A DNA stretch of 20,000 nt, from the IMG/VR virus record IMGVR_UViG_3300033888_000043, one strand, 5' to 3'. Source of the stretch: an uncultured virus (IMG/VR IMGVR_UViG_3300033888_000043) (Duplodnaviria > Heunggongvirae > Uroviricota > Caudoviricetes). Below the pieces are notes generated by a model. That model made no database searches. It was given only the letters and a program-made list of their open reading frames with translations, and had not been told where the DNA came from. A program made the position numbers and the translations under genes. Of the stretch, positions 2,259 to 19,000 are shown in pieces. Numbering within the stretch: the first letter of the stretch is position 1; the number at the start of each line of letters is the position of its first letter.

Positions 2259-3487
2259 ACACACAGACGAACCGGAAGCCGATGGCTTCCGAACAAGACG
2301 GCGACCGTCGGAATGACGGCGCATGCGCCAGGTTAATGAGGTCCCTCGGAAGCGCCACTGGCCGCTTTACGGCACATCCTCCGAGCCAGACCGACTCGGA
2401 TTTCCGGGACGGCGAAACGCCGTTGATCCGTCTCAGGGCTCTGATAACACAGGAAAGCCTCGGGCGGATCCCTCCGAGCCCCTGGGCGGTCGATGACGAT
2501 GGACACGCGCATACCACCCGGAGCTTGGCCGACAAGTTGAAGTGCACCGAGAAGCACATCGCCAACACCTTGGCCGAAGCACTCGCCTGTGGCCTGTTTC
2601 GCCGGGCGACCGCGGCCGACGGAAAGCGTCTGGCTGGCGCCATTGGAGTGAACGCCGACAAGGTAAAGTCTCGCCGGCGCGAGGATCGCTCCCCTGTACA
2701 GGGGGGATTCGTTTTTTCTTCGCCTGAGGTTTTGGCCCAAATTCATAACTTCGACCCGCCGCGGCGCGTCGCCGCCGAGGAATGGGCCGTCAGCTTCAAC
2801 CGTTGGTCCCAGGATGTTTTGAACGCCGCGACGGATAAGGCCCGTAAAATCATCGCGGAAGAGAGGTACAGCGCCTTGCGGGCCATCGGGGTGAAACTAC
2901 CCCCGAAACAGATGGAGGTAATCTCTAACGACCGGGGTGTGCAGCTCGAGTTGACGCTCGAGCCGCCGGCGATTCCGGACGTGCTTGTCTCCCCTGTAAA
3001 GGGGAAGACGATGGCCGCTGGACAGGGGAACGGTTCTCCCCTTGTACAAGCGGGTTTTCCGTCTGTACAGGTGCGACATATAAGGAATAAGAATAAAGAA
3101 GAGGCCACCCCTGTTTCCGGGGCTATTTTTGATGTCAAAAAAGAAGAGTCCAGTCCCGTCCCTTGTGAGACGACGGGACCGGACTCTCTTTTAATGGAAA
3201 GGACCGAAGCACTCCGCGAATTGCTTCTGAGATGGCTTGGAGCCAAACTCTCACCCGACATCCCTGGACCTATCGCATTACACGGAATTCTGGCAGCGCT
3301 GGGAGACGCGGATTTTGCGCTCCTCACGCAGCGCATTCAGGCCCGCATGAGTTCAATCACGTCCTACGGCATGGTTATAAACCTGGCCCGGGACGCGGCG
3401 AAGCTGGCGCGGGCGCCCAAAACCGAAGCCGGGCCGAGCCTGCTCGACTTGAAACTACAAATGCAAAGAGAGGGAAAGCTGCGATGA
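2255..3487 (+). CDS. Probable phage replication initiator (N-terminal wHTH-like region, internal iterons)
   Basis: GGAGG RBS then GTG at 2255. HTH-like 'TTRSLADKLKCTEKHIANTLAEALACGLFRR'. Iteron-like palindromes and an AT-rich tract lie inside the gene, as in lambdoid O genes. Confidence 0.6.
   Translation: MNTQTNRKPMASEQDGDRRNDGACARLMRSLGSATGRFTAHPPSQTDSDFRDGETPLIRLRALITQESLGRIPPSPWAVDDDGHAHTTRSLADKLKCTEKHIANTLAEALACGLFRRATAADGKRLAGAIGVNADKVKSRRREDRSPVQGGFVFSSPEVLAQIHNFDPPRRVAAEEWAVSFNRWSQDVLNAATDKARKIIAEERYSALRAIGVKLPPKQMEVISNDRGVQLELTLEPPAIPDVLVSPVKGKTMAAGQGNGSPLVQAGFPSVQVRHIRNKNKEEATPVSGAIFDVKKEESSPVPCETTGPDSLLMERTEALRELLLRWLGAKLSPDIPGPIALHGILAALGDADFALLTQRIQARMSSITSYGMVINLARDAAKLARAPKTEAGPSLLDLKLQMQREGKLR
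2687..2724. repeat. Copy 1 of long-range repeat containing perfect palindrome CCCCTGTACAGGGG
   Basis: CGCTCCCCTGTACAGGGGGGATT (2687-2709) is identical to 15968-15990. Similarity continues (TTTTCTTCRCC). Confidence 0.9.
2989..3147. promoter_or_regulatory. Putative replication origin: palindromic iterons plus AT-rich tract
   Basis: CCCCTGTAAAGGGG (2991), CCGCTGGACAGGGG (3015), CCCTTGTACAAGCG (3039), CGTCTGTACAGGTG (3060), spaced 24/24/21 bp. Followed by A-rich CATATAAGGAATAAGAATAAAGAAGA and a degenerate fifth copy at about 3108. Confidence 0.65.
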
Positions 3488-4077
3488 AACAGTTGACATA
3501 CGATCAAGCCCGCGAAATTGCCAATAATCTCAAGACCCTGGTATTTTGCCCCGACACAGATGGGCTGAAGGCTATAGCCGAGGACCTGGTGGGCTGGTGC
3601 CAAGGTTTCCAGGGTTGGGCACCAGACCAGCAAGCGATGTGGGTGGTACAGGAAATCCGCAACCAATGGGACAAATGGTATGGCTCGAAAGCCATGCGGG
3701 AGATGTTTGACCAGAAGTTTACGATCCATCCACCCGATCCCATTGAGGCGTGGAAAAAACAAGGGTTGAAGCCAGACCCCACTTTCGTTGAGTCGATTCT
3801 AGGCACGATCAATGGGAAATCGACGCCGGAACAACTCGACGCCTTGCGTTGGGAGAGCATCGGGGACGCGCTCGAATATCAAGGACTTCCTGAGCGGGAC
3901 AAAACCAAGGACGGGCGAAAATTCTGGCCGGACTTCCTCTTTCGGATGGAACAGGAGCATCCGACAGAAGTGGCTGCGATCCGCGCTGGTCGCCAGCCCG
4001 AGCATCCCGAGTCAGAGGCGTACAAGAATCTCTGGGATCGCCAAGGGGCTGCCAGACAACTGCGAGGTCCGGGATGA
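3484..4077 (+). CDS. Hypothetical protein, possibly a helicase loader/replication accessory
   Basis: ATGA-coupled to the putative initiator. Function inferred only from position. Confidence 0.6.
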   Translation: MKQLTYDQAREIANNLKTLVFCPDTDGLKAIAEDLVGWCQGFQGWAPDQQAMWVVQEIRNQWDKWYGSKAMREMFDQKFTIHPPDPIEAWKKQGLKPDPTFVESILGTINGKSTPEQLDALRWESIGDALEYQGLPERDKTKDGRKFWPDFLFRMEQEHPTEVAAIRAGRQPEHPESEAYKNLWDRQGAARQLRGPG

Positions 4078-4382
4078 CCGCCCTCGGGTTACTCCTCGTC
4101 CGCGGCGGCTTCGCCCCGCGCCAACTGGGTCTGAACGATGACGTATACGATCCCGGCGCGCCCCGCGGCATCCCCGCCAAAGCGCGGCTCTACGGCGACC
4201 ACCCGCGCGAGATACGTGCACGGGACGCAAATCCACGCGCCAATGCCGGCCGCGCGCCGGGTACTCCAGGGCGGTTGTGGCCGCTGACCGACCGCCAGGC
4301 GGAAGCCCAGCGGCAAAGCGAACGCGACCTGGTGCGCGGCGCGGAGCGCGAGGCCGCAGCGCGGCGGGGGGATGCCGCATGA
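4074..4382 (+). CDS. Hypothetical protein
   Basis: ATGA coupling at both ends. Confidence 0.5.
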   Translation: MTALGLLLVRGGFAPRQLGLNDDVYDPGAPRGIPAKARLYGDHPREIRARDANPRANAGRAPGTPGRLWPLTDRQAEAQRQSERDLVRGAEREAAARRGDAA

Positions 4383-5521
4383 AAGCCCCCTTTCCTTGGT
4401 TCGGCGGTAAGAGCCGCGCGGCGGAACTTGTCTGGCGGCACTTCGGCGACGTCGGCAACTACGTTGAGCCGTTTGCTGGCAGCTTGGCTGTGCTGTTGGC
4501 TAGGCCTCACGCGCCGCGGATTGAAACAGTGAATGACGCCGATGCCTACTTGGCCAACTTCTGGCGGGCACTCCAGGCGGATCCAGAAGCCGTGGCTGAG
4601 TTTGCCGACTGGCCGGTGAGCGAGGTAGACCTGCAGGCGCGGCATCGCTGGCTTACCGAACAACCGGACTTCCGCGCCAAGATGGGGACGGATCCGGACT
4701 TCTACAACGCCAAGATCGCCGGCTGGTGGGTGTGGGGTATCTCGCAATGGATCGGCGCCGGCTGGTGCTCAAGGCCGGAATGGATTGGCCGCGCGCAAGG
4801 CGGCAAGGCGCATTCCCGCGGCGTGAACGGTAGCGCCAACCTCCGCCTGAATGGCAAGATGGGCGTGCATTCGGCGGCGAGTTGGGCCGGCAAGCTCGAT
4901 GGCATGAATAAGCGGCCGGTCATCAACCGCGGCGGCCGGGGAATATCGAAGTTGCCAAAGATGAACCGTGGAGACGTAAGTAGGCTGCAGCCGGGGCGCA
5001 AGATCCGGACCCCGGAAAATCCAGACTGGCAGCATCGGCCGCAACTCACTAATGAAATGGGCGTGCATGCCAAGAATCTGCCGGGCGTCGCACTGGTGTC
5101 CTGGATGTGCGCCTTAGCCGACCGCCTGCGCCGGGTGCGCGTCTGCTGCGGCGACTGGTCCGGGATAGTCAGGCCGAGCTGCACCTGGAAGCTCGGTGGC
5201 GGCCAACTGACCGGAGTATTCTTGGATCCGCCGTACTCGCATACGATGCGCGACAACCGGCTGTACTCGGTTGAGGAAGACGTTGCGGCCGAAGTCCGCG
5301 AGTGGGCGATTGCCAACGGCGACAACCGGAACCTGCGAATAGCGCTTTGCGGACTCGGTGGCGAACATATCATGCCAGAGGGTTGGCACATGACCAGATG
5401 GAAGGCAGCACGGGGCTACTCCAACAAGGGACCACGGGATGAGGTGATCTGGTTCTCGCGGTATTGCATCCACACCGGAAACCTGTTTCAGGACGCGGAA
5501 TTAGAAAGGGCAGCCCCATGA
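4379..5521 (+). CDS. DNA adenine methyltransferase (D12/Dam-like class) with large central insertion
   Basis: 'PFPWFGGKS', 'YVEPFAGSLAVL', 'ETVND', catalytic 'VFLDPPY'. ATGA-coupled start at 4379. Confidence 0.9.
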   Translation: MKAPFPWFGGKSRAAELVWRHFGDVGNYVEPFAGSLAVLLARPHAPRIETVNDADAYLANFWRALQADPEAVAEFADWPVSEVDLQARHRWLTEQPDFRAKMGTDPDFYNAKIAGWWVWGISQWIGAGWCSRPEWIGRAQGGKAHSRGVNGSANLRLNGKMGVHSAASWAGKLDGMNKRPVINRGGRGISKLPKMNRGDVSRLQPGRKIRTPENPDWQHRPQLTNEMGVHAKNLPGVALVSWMCALADRLRRVRVCCGDWSGIVRPSCTWKLGGGQLTGVFLDPPYSHTMRDNRLYSVEEDVAAEVREWAIANGDNRNLRIALCGLGGEHIMPEGWHMTRWKAARGYSNKGPRDEVIWFSRYCIHTGNLFQDAELERAAP

Positions 5522-7390: not shown

Positions 7391-7825
7391 ATGAAAGGAC
7401 TTGCTTTATCTATTCCGTCCTCGCGTCCGTCCTCGCGGACGGAAGTCTGGCGCCACCAGCGCCTCTACGATTACATCACCACGTTGGAGATGAGTTTCGC
7501 CGAACGGCAGCGGTTTAACGCCGCGCTCAACGACAATTTGACCGAGCGCCTGCTCTCGATCGAGAATCGGACCAGCGCGCCAATCACCGGCAACGCGCCG
7601 CCGGCGCCGGCAACCGATACCGCGCGGCACAGGCGGACCAAAGCGCAGCGCGCGAAGTTGAGCCAGGCCGCGACAGCCCGCTGGGCGAAACGGAGAGCCG
7701 AGGAAGCTGGTACGGCCGCGCCGCCCGCGGTTGAGACCGGAGGCCAGCCCGTGCCGGTGGCCGCTAAGACGCGCGCGCGCCGGAAGCCCGTCGAGAAGGC
7801 GATGAGCGCCGGCGGGGGGAACTAG
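7391..7825 (+). CDS. Basic putative nucleic-acid-binding protein
   Basis: GGGAG RBS and upstream TGTTACTAT extended -10 (7360-7368). Motif 'RRTKAQRAKLSQAATARWAKRR'. Confidence 0.7.
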   Translation: MKGLALSIPSSRPSSRTEVWRHQRLYDYITTLEMSFAERQRFNAALNDNLTERLLSIENRTSAPITGNAPPAPATDTARHRRTKAQRAKLSQAATARWAKRRAEEAGTAAPPAVETGGQPVPVAAKTRARRKPVEKAMSAGGGN

Positions 7826-9047: not shown

Positions 9048-9089
9048 TTAAAAAGCCGCGAGGCTAAAAAGAGCGAAAGGAACAAGATG
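9048..9089 (+). repeat. Leader module copy 1 (AGCC-GCGA-GGCT hairpin, A-rich linker, GCGAAAGGA RBS)
   Basis: TTAAAAAGCCGCGAGGCTAAAAAGAGCGAAAGGAACAAGATG. Near-duplicate at 9554-9594. Confidence 0.8.
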
Positions 9090-9239: not shown

Positions 9240-9487
9240 AAAGCAGAATCACATACATGACGCGCGAAGAAGCGATCGAATTGCTGGACGCATACGACGC
9301 TGCCCCGGACGCACCCGAATCCTGCGACAACCTCTGCACTGTGGCTGATGCGCTGCCTGGGCAGCCGGACGACCGCCAGTACACCTCGGACGATCTCCGC
9401 GAAATGGTGGATTCCGCTTGGTGTCCGCTGTGCGGCATGATCCACCCCAAGGGCGATGGACCTGCCGGATATTCTTGCGAGGCGTGA
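9236..9487 (+). CDS. Acidic hypothetical protein with C-terminal CxxC..H motif
   Basis: AGGAG RBS, coupled start MKSRITYM... Confidence 0.65.
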   Translation: MKSRITYMTREEAIELLDAYDAAPDAPESCDNLCTVADALPGQPDDRQYTSDDLREMVDSAWCPLCGMIHPKGDGPAGYSCEA

Positions 9488-9549
9488 ATCGCAGACGACA
9501 CGCCCTCCGGGGCGTGTAATGCGGCAGCGCCGGTTCGAAGCCCGGCCAC
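9484..9549 (+). ncRNA. Twister self-cleaving ribozyme, type-P5 (circularly permuted)
   Basis: P2 CGCA(9490-93)/UGCG(9520-23). GA-CGA (9494-98). P1 hairpin CACGCCC-UCCG-GGGCGUG. Conserved UAA (9517-19). P4 GCCGG/CCGGC with loop U-UCG-AA-GC. Pseudoknot T1 UCG/CGA and T2 GC/GC. Short P5 GUG/CAC. Confidence 0.88.
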
Positions 9550-9553
9550 CACA

Positions 9554-9594
9554 TTGAAAAGCCGCGAGGCTCTAAAGCGCGAAAGGAAAATATG
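9554..9594 (+). repeat. Leader module copy 2
   Basis: TTGAAAAGCCGCGAGGCTCTAAAGCGCGAAAGGAAAATATG, directly 3' of the ribozyme. Confidence 0.8.
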
Positions 9595-9921: not shown

Positions 9922-10137
9922 ATGCGCGAGAACGATCTGCCCAAGATGATCTGGGATATGGCCACAGCGATGAACGCTGCTATGGCCGCCACTGTGCGCC
10001 GCCTGCCCGAGGAGCCGGCCGAGGAACCGATCCGGGCGCGGCCGAACGATCTGCCCAAGATGATCTGGGATATGGCCACCCAGATGAACGTTGCTATGGC
10101 CGCCACCTCGAGGGCGGCAGAAAAGGAGACAAAGTAG
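9922..10137 (+). CDS. Small protein with internal tandem duplication
   Basis: NDLPKMIWDMATxMNxAMAAT occurs twice. AGGAGG upstream. Confidence 0.65.
   Translation: MRENDLPKMIWDMATAMNAAMAATVRRLPEEPAEEPIRARPNDLPKMIWDMATQMNVAMAATSRAAEKETK
9930..10106 (+). repeat. 63-bp direct repeat (4 mismatches), period 114 bp
   Basis: 9930-9992 versus 10044-10106; the first 36 nt are identical. Confidence 0.9.
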
Positions 10138-10139
10138 CC

Positions 10140-11243
10140 ATGGCAACTCTCGCCGCATTGAATGGAAACGGAAACGGCCACGGGCCGCACCCCATCGTCA
10201 TCAAGCCGGACGGCTCGAATCTGGCGTCCGCGCTCAGCGCCTCTCTGGCCGTCCAGCAACTCAAGAAAGATGTGAACCTGGACGCGGCTATTGCGCGTCG
10301 GCACCTCATGATCGAAGTCACCAAGCGGCTGATGATCGAAGGCACCGACTACGGCCCCATTCCCGGATCGGACAAACCAACGCTCTTGCAGCCGGGTGCC
10401 GATAAGCTCTGCAATTTGTTCTCGCTCAAGCTGGAGTACGAAGTCACCGAGAACGTCAAAGATTGGACCGGCAAGGATCACGGCGGCGAACCGTTCTTCT
10501 ACGTCGAGGTCCGCAGCTTCGCCTATCGCGGCGAGGAGTTCATGGGCGAAGGTATTGGCTCCTGCTCCTCGTGGGAAGCCAAGTACCGCTGGCGCAAGGC
10601 AGAGCGGAAATGCCCCCAGTGCAGCAAGGAGAACATCCGCAAGTCGAAACAGGGGGGCTGGTACTGCTGGAACAAGACTGGCGGGTGCGGCGCTACCTTC
10701 CCGGCCGGCGACCAGACCATCGAGTCCCAGGAAGTCGGGCGCGTTCGCAACCCGGACGTGTTCGATGTCGTGAACACGGTCCAAAAGATCGCTCTCAAGC
10801 GCGCCAAGATCAGCGCCACGATCAACGCGACTTCGGCCTCGGAGTTTTTCACCCAGGATATCGAGGAGCAGCCCGAGCCCGAACCCGAGCCTGAAACGCA
10901 AAAAGCGCAGCAACCGGCCCAAACCCTGACAGGCAAGCCGGCTGCTACGCTTCCAGATGCACAATCCCAAACTTCTTCTTCTCCGCAGTCTACCACGAAG
11001 CCCTGGCGCACCTTCGGCGAAATGGTCCGCTGCTTCGAGGCCCTCAAGTCCCAGATCCCCTGGCCGCTTTATTACGAAGTGCTCCGGCAGTTCGGCGTTG
11101 AGCACTCCAACCAGTTCGACAACGCCAAGGCGTCGTGGGCATGCTACCAGCGCCTGGAGCAACGGGTGCAAGAACACTTGCACAAGGCGGCGGACCCGCG
11201 CACCTTCGAACACTACGAAGCTGTGGAAGGAGACTGGCAATGA
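10140..11243 (+). CDS. Putative single-strand annealing/recombination protein with inserted Zn finger
   Basis: 'DYG.IPG..KPTLLQPGADKL', 'GEGIGSCSSWEAKY', CPQC...CW...GGCG, 'NTVQKIA.KRA...A.....S.FFTQDIE', then a Pro/Gln linker. Adjacent to a Gp157-like gene. Confidence 0.6.
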   Translation: MATLAALNGNGNGHGPHPIVIKPDGSNLASALSASLAVQQLKKDVNLDAAIARRHLMIEVTKRLMIEGTDYGPIPGSDKPTLLQPGADKLCNLFSLKLEYEVTENVKDWTGKDHGGEPFFYVEVRSFAYRGEEFMGEGIGSCSSWEAKYRWRKAERKCPQCSKENIRKSKQGGWYCWNKTGGCGATFPAGDQTIESQEVGRVRNPDVFDVVNTVQKIALKRAKISATINATSASEFFTQDIEEQPEPEPEPETQKAQQPAQTLTGKPAATLPDAQSQTSSSPQSTTKPWRTFGEMVRCFEALKSQIPWPLYYEVLRQFGVEHSNQFDNAKASWACYQRLEQRVQEHLHKAADPRTFEHYEAVEGDWQ

Positions 11244-11878
11244 GCGCCCTAGCTCTGGTTGAACCTCGGGAGGCTACGGCCTCCCTTTCGCTGTACGAAT
11301 TGTCCGAGGAGCTTGTCTGTCTCTTGGACACCCGCGACATGGTGGAGCAAGGCTCCGCCGACCAAGCCGACCTCGACGCGCAGATCCAGCAGTTCCAGGA
11401 CGCGCTACCGCGCAAGGTAGATAATGTCTGCCGGATGCTGGCTCACCTCGAATCGCAGGCGGCCGCAGCGAAGCTTGCGGCGAATCTCGAATTCGAACGG
11501 CTTACCAAGCGCCAGAAGCATTTCGAGTCCCAGGCGGCATCCCTCGAAGGCTACTGCGTGCGCGTGCTGGAGGCCCTGCCGGCGCCAAAGAAGGGCCCGC
11601 GCAAGCTGGAGGGCCAGTGCAACACCCTGGCGCTCTCGACCTCGGAGCGATGCAAGGTCGAGGACGCGGCGCTGGTGCCGATCGAATACAAAACGGCCGC
11701 GGCGAAGATGCCGGCGGAATTGTGGCAGCAGATCGTCGAGACGCTGTGGCCCGAAACCCTGGCGCAGATCACCGTCGATGTGTCTGTCCGGCTGGCCGAT
11801 GTCAAAAAGGCTCTCAAGGCCGGCGTGGAAATCGAAGGCGCCGACATTGAGTATCCGAAAGGAGTCAGGCGATCATGA
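11240..11878 (+). CDS. Siphovirus Gp157-family protein
   Basis: 'SLYELSEEL', 'KVDN', coiled coil, 'VEDAALVPIEY', 'VKKALKAGVEIEGA'. Confidence 0.8.
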   Translation: MSALALVEPREATASLSLYELSEELVCLLDTRDMVEQGSADQADLDAQIQQFQDALPRKVDNVCRMLAHLESQAAAAKLAANLEFERLTKRQKHFESQAASLEGYCVRVLEALPAPKKGPRKLEGQCNTLALSTSERCKVEDAALVPIEYKTAAAKMPAELWQQIVETLWPETLAQITVDVSVRLADVKKALKAGVEIEGADIEYPKGVRRS

Positions 11879-13022: not shown

Positions 13023-13531
13023 AAGCCTTGACTTTGACTCAGCCCTGGGCAACGTTAGTCGCTATTTCTGCCAAGAAAATCGAAACGCGAAGCTGGTGCA
13101 CGCACTACCGCGGCCCGCTCGCTATCCACGCAGCCAAGGGCTTTCCGAAGCATGTCAAGGATGCCGTCCGCTACGACATGCGATTCTTTGCCGAATTAAA
13201 TCCGGCCTATGCGGCGCACATGGCCCGTTCCGGCATGAAGCTGCCGCCGACATCGCTCGCATTTGAGACGTTGGCGAGGTTGCCTGTCGGGGCCATCGTC
13301 GCCACATGCCGCCTTGTCAACTGCCGCGAGATCATCGCTTCGGTTTATCCGCCGATGCCCCGCGGCGAATATATGGTCTTGGGTAACCGGATCACACCTC
13401 CGCCCTCTCCCGAGCTGGACTTCGGAGATTATTCGGCTGGTCGCTGGGCTTGGATTCTCGAAGACGTGCATCCCCTCAAGCAACCCATCCCGGCAAAGGG
13501 CGCGCTCGGCCTCTGGGAGTGGACGCCATGA
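13019..13531 (+). CDS. ASCH domain protein
   Basis: 'MKALTLTQPWATLV...KKIETRSW.T.YRGPLAIHAAK', 'GAIVA', 'GRWAW.L...PIPAKGALGLW'. Confidence 0.9.
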   Translation: MKALTLTQPWATLVAISAKKIETRSWCTHYRGPLAIHAAKGFPKHVKDAVRYDMRFFAELNPAYAAHMARSGMKLPPTSLAFETLARLPVGAIVATCRLVNCREIIASVYPPMPRGEYMVLGNRITPPPSPELDFGDYSAGRWAWILEDVHPLKQPIPAKGALGLWEWTP

Positions 13532-13908
13532 TCCTGTCCTTCCACCGGCTCGCTCGCTGGCTCATGCGTGAAGTCCATGGGGTAGATATCCCCAGGAAAG
13601 CACCACGGCGCGCGCTGGGCGGGCCTACACGCTCCTGGCGATACCGGCAATGGATCAGGAGCCTACCTTGTGCCGCCTGTGGACTGGAGCCAGCCGGGGA
13701 AGCGGCACATACCGGATCTGACGGCGGGCTGCGGCAGAAAAGTAGCGACTTCTCGGCGATCCCGCTCTGCCCGGATTGTCACCGATTCGGGCCGGGAGCA
13801 TACCATGCGATCGGCCGGCGCCAGTTTGAACGGCGGCGCTCGATCGACATTGACGCCCTGGTGCGCAGGTTGAATGATCTGTGGCGGCAGGGAAGGAAGG
13901 CGGCGTAA
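13528..13908 (+). CDS. DUF968/HNH-like Zn-binding putative nuclease
   Basis: 'YRQWIRSLPCAACG...AAHT...G.RQKSSDFSAIPLCPDCH'. Confidence 0.8.
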   Translation: MILSFHRLARWLMREVHGVDIPRKAPRRALGGPTRSWRYRQWIRSLPCAACGLEPAGEAAHTGSDGGLRQKSSDFSAIPLCPDCHRFGPGAYHAIGRRQFERRRSIDIDALVRRLNDLWRQGRKAA

Positions 13909-14303
13909 TGTTGCTGGGATTCCAGAAGCGATTCGAGGCCTACGTCCGGGACGGCTCGAAGACTCATACTATCCGGGCCATGCGGAAGCGCGGGGTGCTT
14001 GTGGGGGAAATCTGCCACTGCTATGGAGACACCCGCCAGAGGACCATGCACCTGCTCGGCCGCTGGCCCTGCGTGAAGGTGGAGTACGTCGAGATTCATC
14101 CCCCAATGGGTGGGCGCCCGCAGATTTTCATCGACGGCCAGATATTGAGCCTGGACGAATGCGAAGCGCTTGCTTGGAGAGATGGCTTCAGAGACGACGG
14201 ATTCGGGGAGATGATGCACTTCTGGCGCGGCCGGCTGCCGTTTCGCGGACAGATCATTCACTGGGACTATCGGCGCCCAGTCCCTGATAGGGTGAGTCCA
14301 TGA
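13908..14303 (+). CDS. ASCH/PUA-like protein
   Basis: 'LGFQKRF...V.DGSKTHTIR', 'ALAWRDGF...M..FW'. Confidence 0.7.
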   Translation: MLLGFQKRFEAYVRDGSKTHTIRAMRKRGVLVGEICHCYGDTRQRTMHLLGRWPCVKVEYVEIHPPMGGRPQIFIDGQILSLDECEALAWRDGFRDDGFGEMMHFWRGRLPFRGQIIHWDYRRPVPDRVSP

Positions 14304-14641
14304 CGCCCCGCCAGTTGGAGATTCTCCAGCACAGCCTGGGTGTGGACCAATACGGCCAGGGCAATATGTACCGCAACCACTTCTGTGCTGGCGGCGACGA
14401 TGAAGCAATCTGCCGGGAGTTGGTGGCGATGGGGTACATGGAGACCTTCGAGCGGTCGTACCTGCCCTATTACAACTGCACCGTGACAGCAGCGGGCCGG
14501 GCGGCGATGCTGGCCGAGAGTCCGAAGCCTCCCAAGTTGTCGCGATCCCAGCATCGATACCGAGACTTTCTCAACGCCGACTTGGGCATATCGTTCCGGG
14601 AATACCTGAAGGCGCTCGATGATAGAAGGCGGCGCCCATGA
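14300..14641 (+). CDS. Conserved phage hypothetical protein (wHTH-like)
   Basis: 'ILQHSLG.D.YG....YRNHFCAG...C.ELV..GYM...VTAAGR'. Confidence 0.75.
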   Translation: MTPRQLEILQHSLGVDQYGQGNMYRNHFCAGGDDEAICRELVAMGYMETFERSYLPYYNCTVTAAGRAAMLAESPKPPKLSRSQHRYRDFLNADLGISFREYLKALDDRRRRP

Positions 14642-14922
14642 ACCACGGCAACGTAGAAGCCGCCCTAACGCTGCTCCGTAATCACCTGGCAGCCGGGCAT
14701 CCCCTGGTACTAGCGACAACTCAGCTTGTTGAGAACGGCCACATCTTTCCCGGCTTCTATTCAGTGTCGGATTTAGAGACGCATGCAGTAGCGTACATTC
14801 AACAGCCGGTGCGCGTGGTGCGGCGCCTGAGTTTTGAAGAGGCGCTGCCGCATTGGGTGGATACCTGGTCCTGGGAAGCTGGGCCAGGGAGTTATCTATT
14901 CTACGAATTGGAGAGTGACTGA
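14638..14922 (+). CDS. Hypothetical protein
   Basis: ATGA-coupled. Confidence 0.6.
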   Translation: MNHGNVEAALTLLRNHLAAGHPLVLATTQLVENGHIFPGFYSVSDLETHAVAYIQQPVRVVRRLSFEEALPHWVDTWSWEAGPGSYLFYELESD

Positions 14923-14923
14923 C

Positions 14924-15718
14924 ATGGAAAACGGAAACCAAACTGAATCGTTTCTTCGCGACGTGGCGGGGCACACAATGGCGGTCATGCAAGACAACGG
15001 CGTGTATCGGCACATCCGCTTCCGCCAAGCCTCGCCCGCATCGTGGAATATGTGGTTCGATCTCGTTACATGGCCCGGAAATCTTGCCATCCGGGGCGAC
15101 ATGGGAACGTGGGTATTCTCGCGGGTTGAGGATATGTTCACTTTCTTCCGCTCTCGGAATCGGGAGTTGCGAATAAACGCATCCTACTGGTGCGAGAAGG
15201 TCGAGAGTGAAAGCCGGTTCGGAGGGCCTTCCCGCAAGTTCGACGGGGAGTCATTCAAGGCAAACGTGCTTTTGAGCTTGGATGGCTACGGTCTCGAAGA
15301 CGAAGAAAAACAAGAAATCACGGCGGTGCTCCAGGAGGAAGTCTTCAGTCTGGAGGATGAACTGTCCGCGCGCAAGGCGCTGGCCGATTTCGAATATAAC
15401 GGATTCTCCTTTCAGGACCCTTGGGAGATCCAGGGCCAGGGCTACAGCCATCACTTCATCTGGTGCCTGCATGCGATTGTTTGGGGCATCCAGCAGTACG
15501 ACAAACTGGAAAATCTGGAACCAGCCGGGGACGCGGCGGCGGCCACGGCGGCAACAAAGGCGGATACGGAACTCGTGCGCTGCCAGTGCGGCTCCTTGGC
15601 CGTTATTGAGACTCCAGCGTATGGCGGCGCGCGGTATAAGTGCGATGAATGCGGAGCGGATTGGATCTCATCGGCGGCGGCCACGGCGGCAGTAAACAAC
15701 AAAGATTTGAAAGGTTGA
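14924..15718 (+). CDS. Conserved phage hypothetical protein with C-terminal Zn ribbon
   Basis: GGAG RBS. 'FL.DVA.H.M....D.GVYRH.RF...WFDLVTWPG.L.I.GDMGTWVFSR..DMF.FFR'. Tail CQCGS...YKCDECG. Confidence 0.8.
   Translation: MENGNQTESFLRDVAGHTMAVMQDNGVYRHIRFRQASPASWNMWFDLVTWPGNLAIRGDMGTWVFSRVEDMFTFFRSRNRELRINASYWCEKVESESRFGGPSRKFDGESFKANVLLSLDGYGLEDEEKQEITAVLQEEVFSLEDELSARKALADFEYNGFSFQDPWEIQGQGYSHHFIWCLHAIVWGIQQYDKLENLEPAGDAAAATAATKADTELVRCQCGSLAVIETPAYGGARYKCDECGADWISSAAATAAVNNKDLKG
15534..15691 (+). repeat. 20-bp exact direct repeat flanking the Zn-ribbon coding segment
   Basis: CGGCGGCGGCCACGGCGGCA at 15534-15553 and 15672-15691. Confidence 0.85.
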
Positions 15719-15721
15719 ACC

Positions 15722-15895
15722 ATGACCCTTGCCCGTCTTGTCTCCGTCCTCCACCACGACAGATTGCGGTTGCCAAGTCTCCGGGAGAAATTCTCTTCGA
15801 TGTCGCGGGCTAACGTCGGCCGCCAGGAACGGGCGCACCGCAAAGAACTCCTGAAGTCGGTGGACAAGTGGAAGAGGAGTCATCCTTCGGAGTAA
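15722..15895 (+). CDS. Possible small basic protein (57 aa)
   Basis: ATG 3 nt after the upstream stop, weak RBS. Confidence 0.35.
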   Translation: MTLARLVSVLHHDRLRLPSLREKFSSMSRANVGRQERAHRKELLKSVDKWKRSHPSE

Positions 15896-15936
15896 TAAAG
15901 GGCAGGCCTCCGGCAGGGAAGGGTGAAACATGATGG

Positions 15937-16004
15937 GGGCAAATTGTAAACCGGGCAAGATGTAAACCGCTCCCCTGTACAGGGGGGATTTACTTTTCTT
16001 CACC
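15937..16004. repeat. Tandem 16-bp repeats plus copy 2 of the replication-gene palindrome
   Basis: GGGCAAATTGTAAACC / GGGCAAGATGTAAACC (15937-15968), then CGCTCCCCTGTACAGGGGGGATT (15968-15990). Confidence 0.85.
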
Positions 16005-16024
16005 GTGCTGGACGGCGAAAGGAA

Positions 16025-16053
16025 AGAATAGCGGGTTGCTGAGAGGATGTCAA
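16025..16053 (-). promoter_or_regulatory. Near-consensus leftward sigma70 promoter
   Basis: Minus strand TTGACA-17 nt-TATTCT. Confidence 0.7.
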
Positions 16054-16085
16054 GGGGCAGTAGATAGATTGAGCGGCTTTGGTGT

Positions 16086-19000
16086 TTAATGTCCGGCAGC
16101 TTCCCGGCGCAGCGCCTTCTCGCGTTTCTCCGGGCTGGAGGCATTCTGCACGATTCCCTGGGTAATAGGGTTCAAGTCGGCCGCCATCCGCCACCAGGCG
16201 TTACCCACTTTCCCCCGGTCGCTGCCCAGGAATCCGCTCTGCTGGCCCAAATCGCCATAGAAGGCATTCAACTCACGGATTGAGGCACCGATGGTGGCGC
16301 CGACCTCCGAAGAATAGCCAGCGTGCTTCTGCGCAGGAGCCGAAGAAAACGCCGGCATCAGGCCGCCCATAAATCCGGGCTTGCGTGTGTTGGGCGTTGC
16401 GGGCATCAACTTCGGGCCGGGTTCCACGTAAGGCTCGTAGCCCTGGCCCAGCAGCCCACTGCCCAGCACGAACATGCTGCGCGCGGCGGGGCCTTCCATG
16501 GGGTGCGCCAGGCTGTTCGAGATATCCGAGAATGCGCCTTGCGCCATCTGCGCGCCGGTACCGCCAGACTGCATGGTCTGGAACATTTGCGGCACGCCGA
16601 ATAACCTGGCGCCGCGGGCCGGCAGGGGATTGTACCAGTTAAAATTGAGGTAGCCCACTTCCGGACCATTCCCCCACATGGCATCGCCCAGCTTCGAATG
16701 CCGGAACTGATCGATATATCCATTGCCACCGCCAACCGGGATAGAGAAAGCCTTGGCGCGCCTGTCTTCCAGCGGCCATTTCCCGGTGAGCAATTTGTAG
16801 CCAATCACCCACAGCGCCACAGCCATAATGCTCGAGGCTGCCCACATCCAGGCGCGCGCTTCGGGCGTCATCTGACCGTATGGTCCTTTGCCACCCGCGG
16901 CCAGGGGTGCTCCGGTGTAGGAATCCACCGCGTTCACCATGCGCGTCATGCCGGCGGTAGCGAACGGTCCCAGGCCGATGCGCTTGACGAACTTCTCGAT
17001 CTCGCCCTGGAATTCCGGGGTGTAGTTCCCGAGCTGGTTGACGAAGTGGTACAGGTTGCTGGGGGTCTGCTCCTCGGCGGGGAATGACGCCTGAAAGATG
17101 TCGTACATCAGGATGCGCGCGCGGGCGTCCAGGCCTTTCGGGCCAAACAGTAACGGGCCGAAGCTGGCGCGCTCGACCTTGGCGCCGGTGGCCTCGGCAA
17201 ATTCTTTCGAGTATGTCACTTTGCCCGACCGCGCAGGCATCGCGCCGGCCTGCGCCATCTTTTGCAGTTTGGCGATGTTCTCGGGAGTTGTGGGATCGAT
17301 GGACAGCAGCTTGCCCCGGATGGCCGCCCACTTAATGAGGGGCAAAGAAAGCGCCTTGTCCAGTCCGGACTTGCCCAGGAAAGGCGTGTTGGAATAGAGC
17401 GCGCCCATGACGCCGGACGAGTGGAACAGGAATTCGTAGGGGCCTTTGGTGGCCAGCATGTTGGCCCAGGCCATCATTTTGGCGACGTCGTTCGGATCGC
17501 TTGGCTCTTTGGCGAGGATCGGCCGCAAGCCCCGCTCCATAAACTTCGGCATGACTCCGAAGCTGGCCGGGATATGGGTAACCTTGCCGTTCTGGATAAT
17601 CAGCCGCGCCTGTCCGGTTTCGACTTGCGCGCCTTCATAGACCTCGCCGTCCGGTCCTTTGATCGTGCCGTCCCAGTTGGCGGGCTGGGGTTTCAGCCAC
17701 GCGGTCTCACGCAAGGTCTTGATGAGCACGGCCTTGTCGTTGGCGCGGATCGCGCTGGCCAGGCGCCGGGCGAAGTCCTCCATGTGGATCGAGTAGCCGC
17801 CGGACGATAAACCTGTGGCGAAGGCGTTGGCGATGTTCTTGGGCGGGTGGTACGGCAGGCGCCGGCCTGGTCCCGCTACCGTCTGTTTGTCCACGGGGAT
17901 CAGCGGGTAGTAGGTATCGAGGGGTCCCAGCGCGTCGGAAAACACGCCTTCATTGAGAGCGTGATTCCGGGCCATCACCGCTTCCACCTGGTCTTTGTAA
18001 ATGCGGTGGGCCTCAGCGACTCCCGGCTGGGATTTGATGAGATCGCAGACGTAATCGAAGGCCGGTTCGGGCATCACCTGCTGCACGCGCGCCGCGGCGT
18101 CGCGGAACGTCTGTTCCAGGAATTCGCGCAACGTGTCCCAGTCGTGTGCCTCGGCCAGAGCCGCCGCAGTCTGCCCCAAGTCCTGCGCCAGGCCGGCGCG
18201 CCCTTCGATATTCGACAGCAGTTGCAGTGTCGGGTTGGGGTGGTCGCTCGAGTACTTTCCGTAGACGAAATCCTTCAGGTCCTCTTCCGTCATCTCGGCC
18301 GCCTGGTCCGCAAAGCCGTTCCAGCGATCGCGGATGCCTTCGAGACGGGACTGATCGTAAGCCATGGCGAGCGTGTCCCAGGTGATGGGCGAGCCTTTCA
18401 GCACTTTCATGATCGCTGGCATGGCAGAATGGAGGACCGTGGAGGCCTGCGACATGGATCCGCCGGTCCGGAGAGCGGCTTCAAACACGTCCTTGGAGGA
18501 CTTCTCCACTTCGGCCAGGGATTGGCCGGGCTGTACAATGCGCTTGAGGCCGCCCATAGCGCTGTAGTTGGCTTTGGGGGCGTCGTCTTTGCCGAATTTG
18601 CGCACCAGGGCGTCGGTCAGATCGGTGAGCATGGGAGCGGAGCCGCGCTCGCCGGGATGGGACGCGGACGCATGTGGCCCGAAAACTTCTGGCTTCAGAA
18701 CGCCTATTGCCTCGTAGTGTTTACCATCATCTCCGGTTTCGTATTGCCGGAGGACATCGAACTTGCTACGTGCCAATTCCTCGGCAAGGTTGGGGGTTTT
18801 GAAGAGTTCGCGGAGACGGGCGGCTTGTGCGCCCGCTACGCGGCTGGGGCGGAAAGCGGCAGCTTCACCCTGGTCCCCTGCATTTCGATCCCGTTGCCCG
18901 ACAGCTTCACCTGCTCCAGGCCGCTCGGGGGATACAGCCTGTCCAGGGCCGCTTCGAAGACTTTGGGGTCCGTTGCTTCCAGCAGTTCCTCGAGGTTCTG

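Follow-up and report, generated by a model that had tools for sequence, protein, structure and literature searches.

The stretch of DNA considered here (hereafter the window, 20,000 nucleotides) belongs to an uncultured Caudoviricetes phage, IMG/VR record IMGVR_UViG_3300033888_000043. It represents the minus strand of G000:C1:702-20701 within a viral record of 32.9 kb and 38% estimated completeness; single-position differences between window and genome record are found at 880 and 9223. Our subject is a 190-bp convergent gap (15896-16085) between a long block of rightward genes and a leftward gene of 1529 amino acids (aa); the gap harbors a copy (C2) of an iteron that also lies inside the putative replication initiator gene of the phage, P0001 (copy C1). 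A further copy, C3, is located 2.7 kb left of the window. Coordinates of these features are given in Table 1, together with the equivalent sites in G008, a related phage.

Table 1. Features of the locus, in window coordinates unless stated otherwise, and equivalent sites in the related phage G008.
Feature	Position	Strand	Description	Equivalent in G008
Putative O-like replication initiator gene P0001, 422 aa	2219..3487	+	Open reading frame; assigned by translation and gene/origin architecture	
C1, solitary perfect iteron with GGATTCG and T-rich flank	2687..2724 (CCCCTGTACAGGGG at 2691)	+	In initiator reading frame, 300 bp upstream of array	AAAGGTCTGTTACAGACCTTTT at 16172-16192
Array of four degenerate iterons	2991..3073 (sites at 2991, 3015, 3039, 3060)	+	Inside initiator reading frame	Half sites GGTCTGTAAC and GTTACAGACC, about 330 bp on, before AT-rich stretch
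AT-rich stretch adjoining array, candidate unwinding element	3076..3104	.	About 29% G+C (genome 61%)	
Last reading frame of the rightward block, 57 aa	15722..15895	+	Stop at 15893-15895 starts the gap	Part 81% identical
Two tandem 16-bp units, GGGCAAATTGTAAACC and GGGCAAGATGTAAACC	15937..15969	+	Period 16, 2.1 copies, 88% matches (Tandem Repeats Finder)	
C2, after last rightward reading frame	15968-16006	+	Extended imperfect palindrome 15953-16004, about 52 bp, centred on CCCCTGTACAGGGG at 15972-15985	GGTCTGTACAGACC at 36959-36972, A4/T4 flanks, arms GGTC/GACC
Conserved non-coding block	16007..16070	.	16-nt identical core ATAGCGGGTTGCTGAG	79% identical over 72 nt (16000-16070)
Sigma-70-like promoter TTGACA-17-TATTCT pointing at C2	16025..16053	-	10/12 match; predicted start near 16018	TTGACA-18-TATCCT
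3' part of the 1529-aa leftward gene converging on C2	16086..20000	-	Whole gene 16086 to window coordinate 20675	
C3, after 108-aa GerE/LuxR gene, before 3' end of leftward TnpB gene	G000:C1:23353-23392 (window coordinate about -2690)			GGTCTGTACAGACC exact at 11783 and 11828

The iteron and its remote copies

The 14-mer CCCCTGTACAGGGG is the iteron palindrome of the phage origin and is found without mismatch at 2691 and 15972; the four degenerate copies of the array follow at spacings of 24, 24 and 21. Allowing up to 3 mismatches, the window holds 6 matches (0.86 expected), a number reached by 0 of 200 shuffles. With up to 2 mismatches there are 5 sites in the whole genome record. Around the palindrome the likeness widens to an extended iteron of about 40-50 bp, of which three copies in one orientation are present: C1, C2 and C3. 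The 23-nt sequence CGCTCCCCTGTACAGGGGGGATT is exact at 2687-2709 and in C2, the likeness runs on with one gap to about 2724 and 16006, respectively, and 2687-2716 is 90% identical to 15968-15997 over 30 nt. Aligned with each other, the three copies have the palindrome, GGATT and the T-rich flank in common, and from the palindrome onward C1 differs from C3 at 1 of 36 positions.

An earlier, sequence-only reading of the window had reported a copy of 2687-2724 near the start of a leftward promoter, with a match extending past the iteron palindrome and tandem 16-bp repeats next to it. The copy is there as described, and in this phage it does reach beyond the palindrome. Two of the repeat units were recovered, the second being the left outer arm of the extended palindrome at C2; a degenerate third unit was not found by Tandem Repeats Finder. 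The arrangement expected of an SPP1-type system is present, with one sequence shared between the initiator gene and non-coding DNA far from it.

C3 is part of the phage backbone, because a metagenome contig identical over 947 nt is without the neighboring 1236-bp TnpB element and yet keeps C3. The same empty-site variant rules out the end of the TnpB insertion sequence as the source of C3. The TnpB element (OrfB_IS605 plus Cas12f1-like TNB, with 32-bp terminal inverted repeats) is found at L006:1537-2643 (+ in L006), which in window terms is about -2542 to -1436 on the minus strand. It is inserted 95 bp right of C3, directly beside the TTGACA box on that side; L019 is an empty-site variant of the same phage.

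P0001 is composed of a winged-helix-like N-terminal part, a low-complexity linker that carries the origin and a conserved C-terminal domain, and its stop codon shares bases with the ATG of the gene that follows (3484-4077). C1 encodes the peptide RSPVQGGFVFSSP. The repeat cluster inside the reading frame, followed by the AT-rich stretch, has the lambda-type ori build, and relatives show the same build. Searches of Pfam and PHROG assigned no family to P0001. An all-against-all HMMER comparison revealed 43 relatives at E<=1e-3, most of them about 400 aa long. In the PDB the initiator family gave a weak MecI match (E 0.013), and the families carried by language-model neighbors of P0001, namely HTH_36, Phage_rep_O (score 0.94), Phage_rep_org_N and Phg_2220_C, are leads only.

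A solitary iteron precedes the array by 300-330 bp in this phage, in G008, in the L008-L012 group and in L016/L017, and by about 300-360 bp in G009. Distant relatives of the initiator came to light in a single set of IMG/VR contigs. Within the L008-L012 group, the solitary copy of the iteron CACCTGTACAGGTG has a comparable T-rich flank and precedes two array copies by 325 bp; L016/L017 carry CCAGCACTGG-type sites in the same solitary-plus-array layout. In the protein alignment of the initiators the iteron sites appear as recurring SPVQ or SVT peptides. By these comparisons, the solitary upstream iteron is a feature of the initiator family; as far as we checked, neither lambda nor SPP1 has been reported to possess such an upstream copy at a distance of about 300 bp. 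The record of L008/L010 (G001; 63.6 kb, rated 100% complete) contains the initiator/iteron region twice, at 14071-14477 and 57567-57973, 43.5 kb apart, and may be a concatemer or a duplicated assembly and not one genome.

Co-variation of the sites with the initiator

G008, the only close relative found, is represented by a record of 87.7 kb, which has terminal repeats and a rating of complete; the query that recovered it was the C-terminal end of the 1529-aa gene product. The two phages are syntenic and their flanking genes are 75-93% identical at the nucleotide level. The last 504 aa of the 1529-aa leftward gene, for which family searches gave no match, show 93% aa identity. At all equivalent sites, G008 carries a different palindrome, GGTCTGT(T)ACAGACC. 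Its remote site is a perfect 22-bp palindrome beyond which nothing matches C1, and here the claimed match past the palindrome fails. Between this phage and G008, 4 of the 6 hairpin stem pairs have changed on both sides.

The initiators of the two phages align over their last 109 aa only (63% identity), the N-terminal part being unalignable, whereas the two LuxR-type regulators beside C3 are 86% and 88% identical to those of G008. Since the initiator diverged and the regulators were kept, the protein that changed together with the sites is the initiator. The LuxR regulators themselves are ruled out as the palindrome binder by this degree of identity between phages whose palindromes differ. As judged by sequence comparison, the remote sites co-vary with the initiator. 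The expectation of the sequence-only reading that the two sites would be linked in relatives was thus borne out: remote sites are present in G008 and correlate with the in-gene site.

Further searches added little to this pair. The phage collection contained no DNA match to 15600-16400, IMG/VR scans with P0001 and P0003 found nothing, and a 19-mer used as query was not found in IMG/VR. A word-based protein search returned the phage's own protein only. Scans with the C-terminus of the large gene, a LuxR regulator and the G008-type initiator alignment gave G008 only, and a scan of GTDB genomes revealed no prophage relative. In metagenomes the 19-mer was found in 6 contigs, of which 4 (L019, L021, L022, L023) are this same phage; the remaining two, L020 and L024, have no other similarity and were taken as chance matches. 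The phrog_4657 gene (14924-15718) is absent from the records of 5 distant relatives.

Terminator form, a probable leftward promoter and RNA contigs

A consensus scan identified plus-strand hairpin-plus-T sites at 2689-2706 and 15970-15987, and C3 scores likewise. Within the 190-bp gap, 15970-15987 is the sole candidate of this kind; over the whole window such sites are at chance level (18 versus 18.2 expected). Folding of the C2 + strand yields a 7-bp inner stem and a 5-bp outer stem (GUAAA/UUUAC) followed by UUUUCUUC. At C3 the inner stem spans 13 bp with a single mismatch, UUUUUCUU comes next, and the whole lies within an almost perfect palindrome of about 60 bp (75 nt fold at -44.1 kcal/mol). 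C1, whose motif is inside the reading frame and without stem extension, has a shorter stem than either remote copy. On the + strand both C2 and C3 have the form of an intrinsic terminator, in which a G+C-rich hairpin runs directly into a U tract where a transcription unit ends. Rfam gave no family at C1, C2 or C3, and chance hairpin matches only over C3.

Much of this would also be seen if C2 and C3 were ordinary intrinsic terminators, derived from C1 by duplication or gene conversion and without any role for the initiator. Both stand at the places expected of terminators and score as such, both lie at mosaic junctions between the two phages, and remote copies are dispensable in 5 of 7 family records. 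The 35 of 36 nt shared by C1 and C3 are more than a binding site needs and look like recent copying. Yet any hairpin sequence would serve for termination, and the arms at three remote sites of G008 and two of this phage match the iteron of the respective phage. Once the initiator module had been swapped, the copies would have no more than about 8 central bp in common, presumably too few for gene conversion; and however it arose, a site identical to the best iteron would be expected to bind the initiator. The near-perfect palindrome of about 60 bp at C3, with its G+C-rich outer arms beyond the A/T tracts, also exceeds the need of a terminator. We consider plain terminators an unlikely explanation.

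Parts of 14500-17500 were found in 10 metatranscriptome runs. The RNA contigs, among the matches listed, are unstranded assemblies from 4 of these 10 runs, and DNA carry-over is possible. Contig X3#23 ends at 16005, contig X2#13 spans 15709-16088, and C3 is bridged by a contig as well. The ends of X3#23 and X2#13 decide nothing, as they fit alike with termination near 16001-16005, a leftward start near 16018, read-through and DNA carry-over.

To the right of C2 the sequence-only reading had seen a strong minus-strand promoter, TTGACA-17-TATTCT, with no convincing gene downstream. The site is present (TTGACA at 16053-16048, TATTCT at 16030-16025), and below 16018 the minus strand holds only a 20-aa reading frame and frames overlapping plus-strand genes. 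As to its strength, the site is consensus-like and the best of 5 promoter matches in the window (4.0 +/- 2.2 expected), but when the window was shuffled 300 times with dinucleotides preserved, 40% of the shuffles contained a match of at least 10/12, at a mean of 0.46 per 20 kb; taken alone, the promoter is not significant. Its standing is raised by the conserved non-coding block in which it lies and by the paired occurrence at the remote loci.

In detail, minus-strand TTGACA-17-TAnnnT occurs at only two places in 32.9 kb, at distances of 63 nt from C2 and 111 nt from C3, on the right in each case. Both promoters face their palindrome and have the sequence CCCTTGACATC in common. A third minus-strand 10/12 match (TTGACT, spacer 19) lies at window -719. 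In the 30 kb of G008 that were scanned, 2 of 3 promoter matches have the same placement, to the right of the C2 equivalent by 69 nt (spacer 18) and of the C3 equivalent by 112 nt (spacer 19); the one on the C2 side is at the corresponding place and has an identical -35 box. A leftward promoter consequently faces the iteron hairpin at 4 of 4 remote loci in the two phages, 63-112 nt to the right. The conserved block is bordered by the swapped palindrome on the left and, from about 16065, by unalignable sequence on the right, where G008 has about 55 extra nt. The leftward promoter, predicted from sequence, is probably real. In the divergent gap before the rightward block (L006:820-843, window about -742 to -719), two opposed and overlapping promoter-like sites lie on the palindrome AATTGACATTTCCGCCCGGAAGTCAATT; one of them reads TTGACA-19-TATAAT, and the whole looks like an operator-controlled early promoter pair.

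Given such promoters, the leftward RNAs starting from 16053-16025 and from its twin at C3 could act in trans as antisense small RNAs that pair with the initiator messenger RNA (mRNA) and lower initiator synthesis. A trans-acting antisense RNA from the first of these promoters is one of two roles put forward in the sequence-only reading. Both copies are direct and the initiator is read on the + strand, so that a minus-strand RNA over 15968-16006 would indeed be complementary to the mRNA. The promoter is kept in G008 within the conserved non-coding block, a like promoter stands beside all four remote loci, and co-variation with C1 is seen at these loci. The G008 palindrome is flanked by T4 on its minus side also, so that a leftward RNA about 60 nt long could carry a terminator of its own. 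In this phage, co-folding of the putative RNA (16018-15930) with mRNA 2640-2770 gains -42.9 kcal/mol over the separate folds, but a sense-strand control gains -25.2 kcal/mol as well, and both partners are locked in stable hairpins. Past the hairpin, the minus-strand tail is U-poor (AUCUUGCC) and offers no clear RNA end in this phage. Above all, the complementarity that is conserved is that of the palindrome alone: in G008, where the match beyond the palindrome is absent, sense and antisense strands are equally complementary and no strand-specific complementarity is retained. Antisense pairing also leaves the palindromic symmetry unexplained, which is expected of a site bound by a dimer, and no stranded transcript was seen, the contigs being unstranded. 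A loose precedent is the oop RNA of lambda acting with iterons, as described in PMC3349717. Altogether, a small RNA of this kind appears improbable.

Left of the window, C3 neighbors two divergent genes for GerE/LuxR-type helix-turn-helix (HTH) proteins (L006:2989-3315 on the minus and L006:3007-3840 on the plus strand), whose 5' ends nearly abut in a Cro/CI-like layout. Further left follow a KTSC-domain gene, a NusG-like antiterminator, a tyrosine integrase and the small and large terminase genes. Transcription leftward from the promoter on the C3 side would pass antisense through the 108-aa gene and only then reach the larger regulator. Short tandem runs of AGCTTTC/CAGCTTT occur at several intergenic places (L006:2953-2985; in G000, window orientation, 127-164, 250-290, 7546-7589 and 9339-9371), among them the sequence immediately following the 108-aa LuxR gene and the junction of the empty site in L019.

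Elsewhere in the window, a type-P5 twister ribozyme match was found at 9490-9545 (+) over the full model length (56 bits versus a gathering threshold of 37.6, E 1.9e-09). It lies in a short gap of the rightward block, and a 35-nt direct repeat (9048-9082 and 9554-9588, 89%) ends beside it. A 63-nt direct repeat (9930-9992 and 10044-10106, 94% identical, 114 nt apart) marks the junction of the reading frames 9922-10137 and 10140-11243. The rightward block of the initiator also contains genes for C5 and N6 DNA methyltransferases (1-864 and 4277-5521), together with two HNH-endonuclease-like genes (966-1904 and 13450-13908), one of which is fused to a D5-like/sigma-70 region-4-like part.

Proposed remote initiator binding and known systems

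Our analysis favors the interpretation that C2 and C3 are remote initiator-binding sites which double as terminators or roadblocks and work like oriR of Bacillus phage SPP1; we give it a probability of roughly 55%. Binding of a protein on DNA is suggested by the palindromic symmetry, the exact identity with the best iteron and the co-variation with the DNA-binding part of the initiator. In the proposed mechanism, initiator dimers would bind C2 and C3, where the palindrome forms the top of the predicted hairpin, ahead of the T tract. Reinforced by the protein, these sites would separate convergent transcription units as terminators or roadblocks, facing the conserved leftward promoters 63-111 bp to the right of each. 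Both sites flank the early/replication gene block and lie just past the 3' ends of rightward transcription units. By analogy with the proposal for gp38 at SPP1 oriR, they might also stall replication forks or loop to the origin. The roles of C2 and C3 may thus include insulation of convergent transcription, control of the facing promoters, and fork pausing or looping.

Transcription near the origin activates ori of phage lambda, and a promoter adjoins each remote palindrome here. One could accordingly think of C2 and C3 as auxiliary origins activated or primed by the adjacent leftward promoter, and the second role put forward in the sequence-only reading was a remote operator or secondary origin. 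G008 has two palindromes 45 bp apart at C3, and PMC6316719 describes two like-built origins bound by one protein in SPP1. Against this, C2 and C3 each hold one full palindrome, with no degenerate array nearby (the 5 sites genome-wide given above) and no AT-rich unwinding stretch comparable to 3076-3104. The binding-site half of the earlier proposal fits best; full secondary origins we regard as very unlikely.

The initiator level might moreover gate leftward transcription from the iteron-terminators at both borders of the early region, or short leftward RNAs might pair with the C1 hairpin, both of which we hold doubtful. Under such gating, the C3 transcript would run antisense through the Cro-like LuxR gene into the CI-like LuxR gene, the NusG-like gene and the integrase, in a manner resembling the establishment promoter of lambda. 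If true, the lysis-lysogeny choice and the antisense control of the early operon would be tied to the level of initiator.

Several observations weigh against C2 and C3 as initiator-bound roadblocks. The first set concerns the protein. Among 26 members of the initiator family, Pfam yielded scattered single-member HTH matches and no family common to more than 1 of the 26. Profile alignment (hhalign) of the family gave a probability of 0.09% with lambda O, and of 2% (E 0.024) with SPP1 gp38. P0001 is therefore an O-like initiator by architecture and not by homology, a putative assignment backed by weak HTH similarities. The second set concerns the comparison with G008. The co-variation is a single evolutionary contrast, i.e. 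two related phages and one specificity swap. To the left of the C2 equivalent, G008 carries a non-homologous 2-kb insert, and its palindrome may have been delivered by recombination rather than changed in place; delivery of this kind would still imply selection for a matched set. The C1 site of G008 has one extra central base relative to its remote sites, which would change the half-site spacing for a rigid dimer.

Third, remote copies are absent in 5 of the 7 whole records with a known iteron (G001, G002, G003, G004 and G009) and so are not needed by the initiator family. Two of these records are fragments (G003, 18% complete; G004, 64%), and G009 (95% complete) carries the G008-type palindrome inside the initiator gene only; the two holders of remote copies are close kin and represent one lineage. 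G005 showed no iteron match at all and is uninformative. Finally, contig X2#13 runs straight across C2, so that termination, if it occurs, is incomplete or the contig is DNA-derived, and C2 is a single palindrome that differs from SPP1 oriR in having neither an iteron array nor an AT-rich stretch.

The principle of remote initiator binding already has its precedent in SPP1. What is new are the uncharacterised initiator family, the solitary iteron about 300 bp upstream of the array, the two remote copies in terminator hairpins on both edges of the early block and the paired leftward promoters. No such combination was found in searches of open-access papers, which is no proof of its absence. Sites that unite an iteron with a terminator hairpin and a promoter facing it could reveal the means by which a replication protein also governs transcription or the passage of forks at module borders. 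The natural domain swap between the two phages, two initiators with two palindromes, is a ready test of specificity.

Small regulatory RNAs of phages are exemplified by C4 of P1 and CI of P4. In lambda, theta replication is reported to be silenced by oop, a short RNA transcribed leftward, in concert with iterons (PMC3349717). Like oop, C4 and CI, the RNA considered here would be short, directed against the early genes and near replication or immunity functions; in contrast to them it is only predicted, and its conserved complementarity is limited to the palindrome. Initiator-binding sites kilobases away from the origin modulate replication in P4 (ori/crr), R6K (gamma with alpha/beta) and P1 (incA). 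A far site of this type is also reported for Vibrio, where RctB binding at crtS modulates replication (PMC11711613). Unlike C2 and C3, the sites of P4, R6K, P1 and Vibrio are not known to form terminator hairpins where genes end or to be accompanied by convergent promoters.

The origin of lambda resembles that of the present phage in its four dyad-symmetric iterons, spaced 20-24 bp within the initiator gene and followed by an AT-rich stretch, and in the overlap of the initiator stop with the start of the next gene (O with P). The difference is in the protein, for which no homology to O was detected: PF04492 (Phage_rep_O) was found in none of the 26 family members at E<=0.01, in line with the hhalign value above. 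The lambda annotation between 38000 and 40400 lists iterons 1-4 only, and we know of neither a solitary upstream iteron nor remote copies in lambda.

To our knowledge, remote initiator-binding sites have been established experimentally in very few phages, with SPP1 oriR as the standard case, the role of which is still a proposal. According to PMC6316719 and PMC3485210, gp38 binds two SPP1 sites, oriL within gene 38 and the intergenic oriR at a distance of about 13 kb, and the proposal is that the phage switches to concatemer synthesis when forks stall at oriR occupied by gp38. By comparison with PMC6316719, the two systems are alike in having an origin inside the initiator's own gene and a second binding set about 13 kb off in non-coding DNA, bracketed by transcription signals, with the bound protein proposed as a barrier. 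They differ in their initiators, which share no detectable homology (hhalign 2%; PF09681, Phage_rep_org_N, absent in 26 of 26 family members), and in their sites, which are direct repeats in SPP1 and palindromes here. In contrast to SPP1, the remote sites of the present phage are single, have no AT-rich element and flank the origin as a pair, and each is placed in a terminator hairpin and paired with a leftward promoter.

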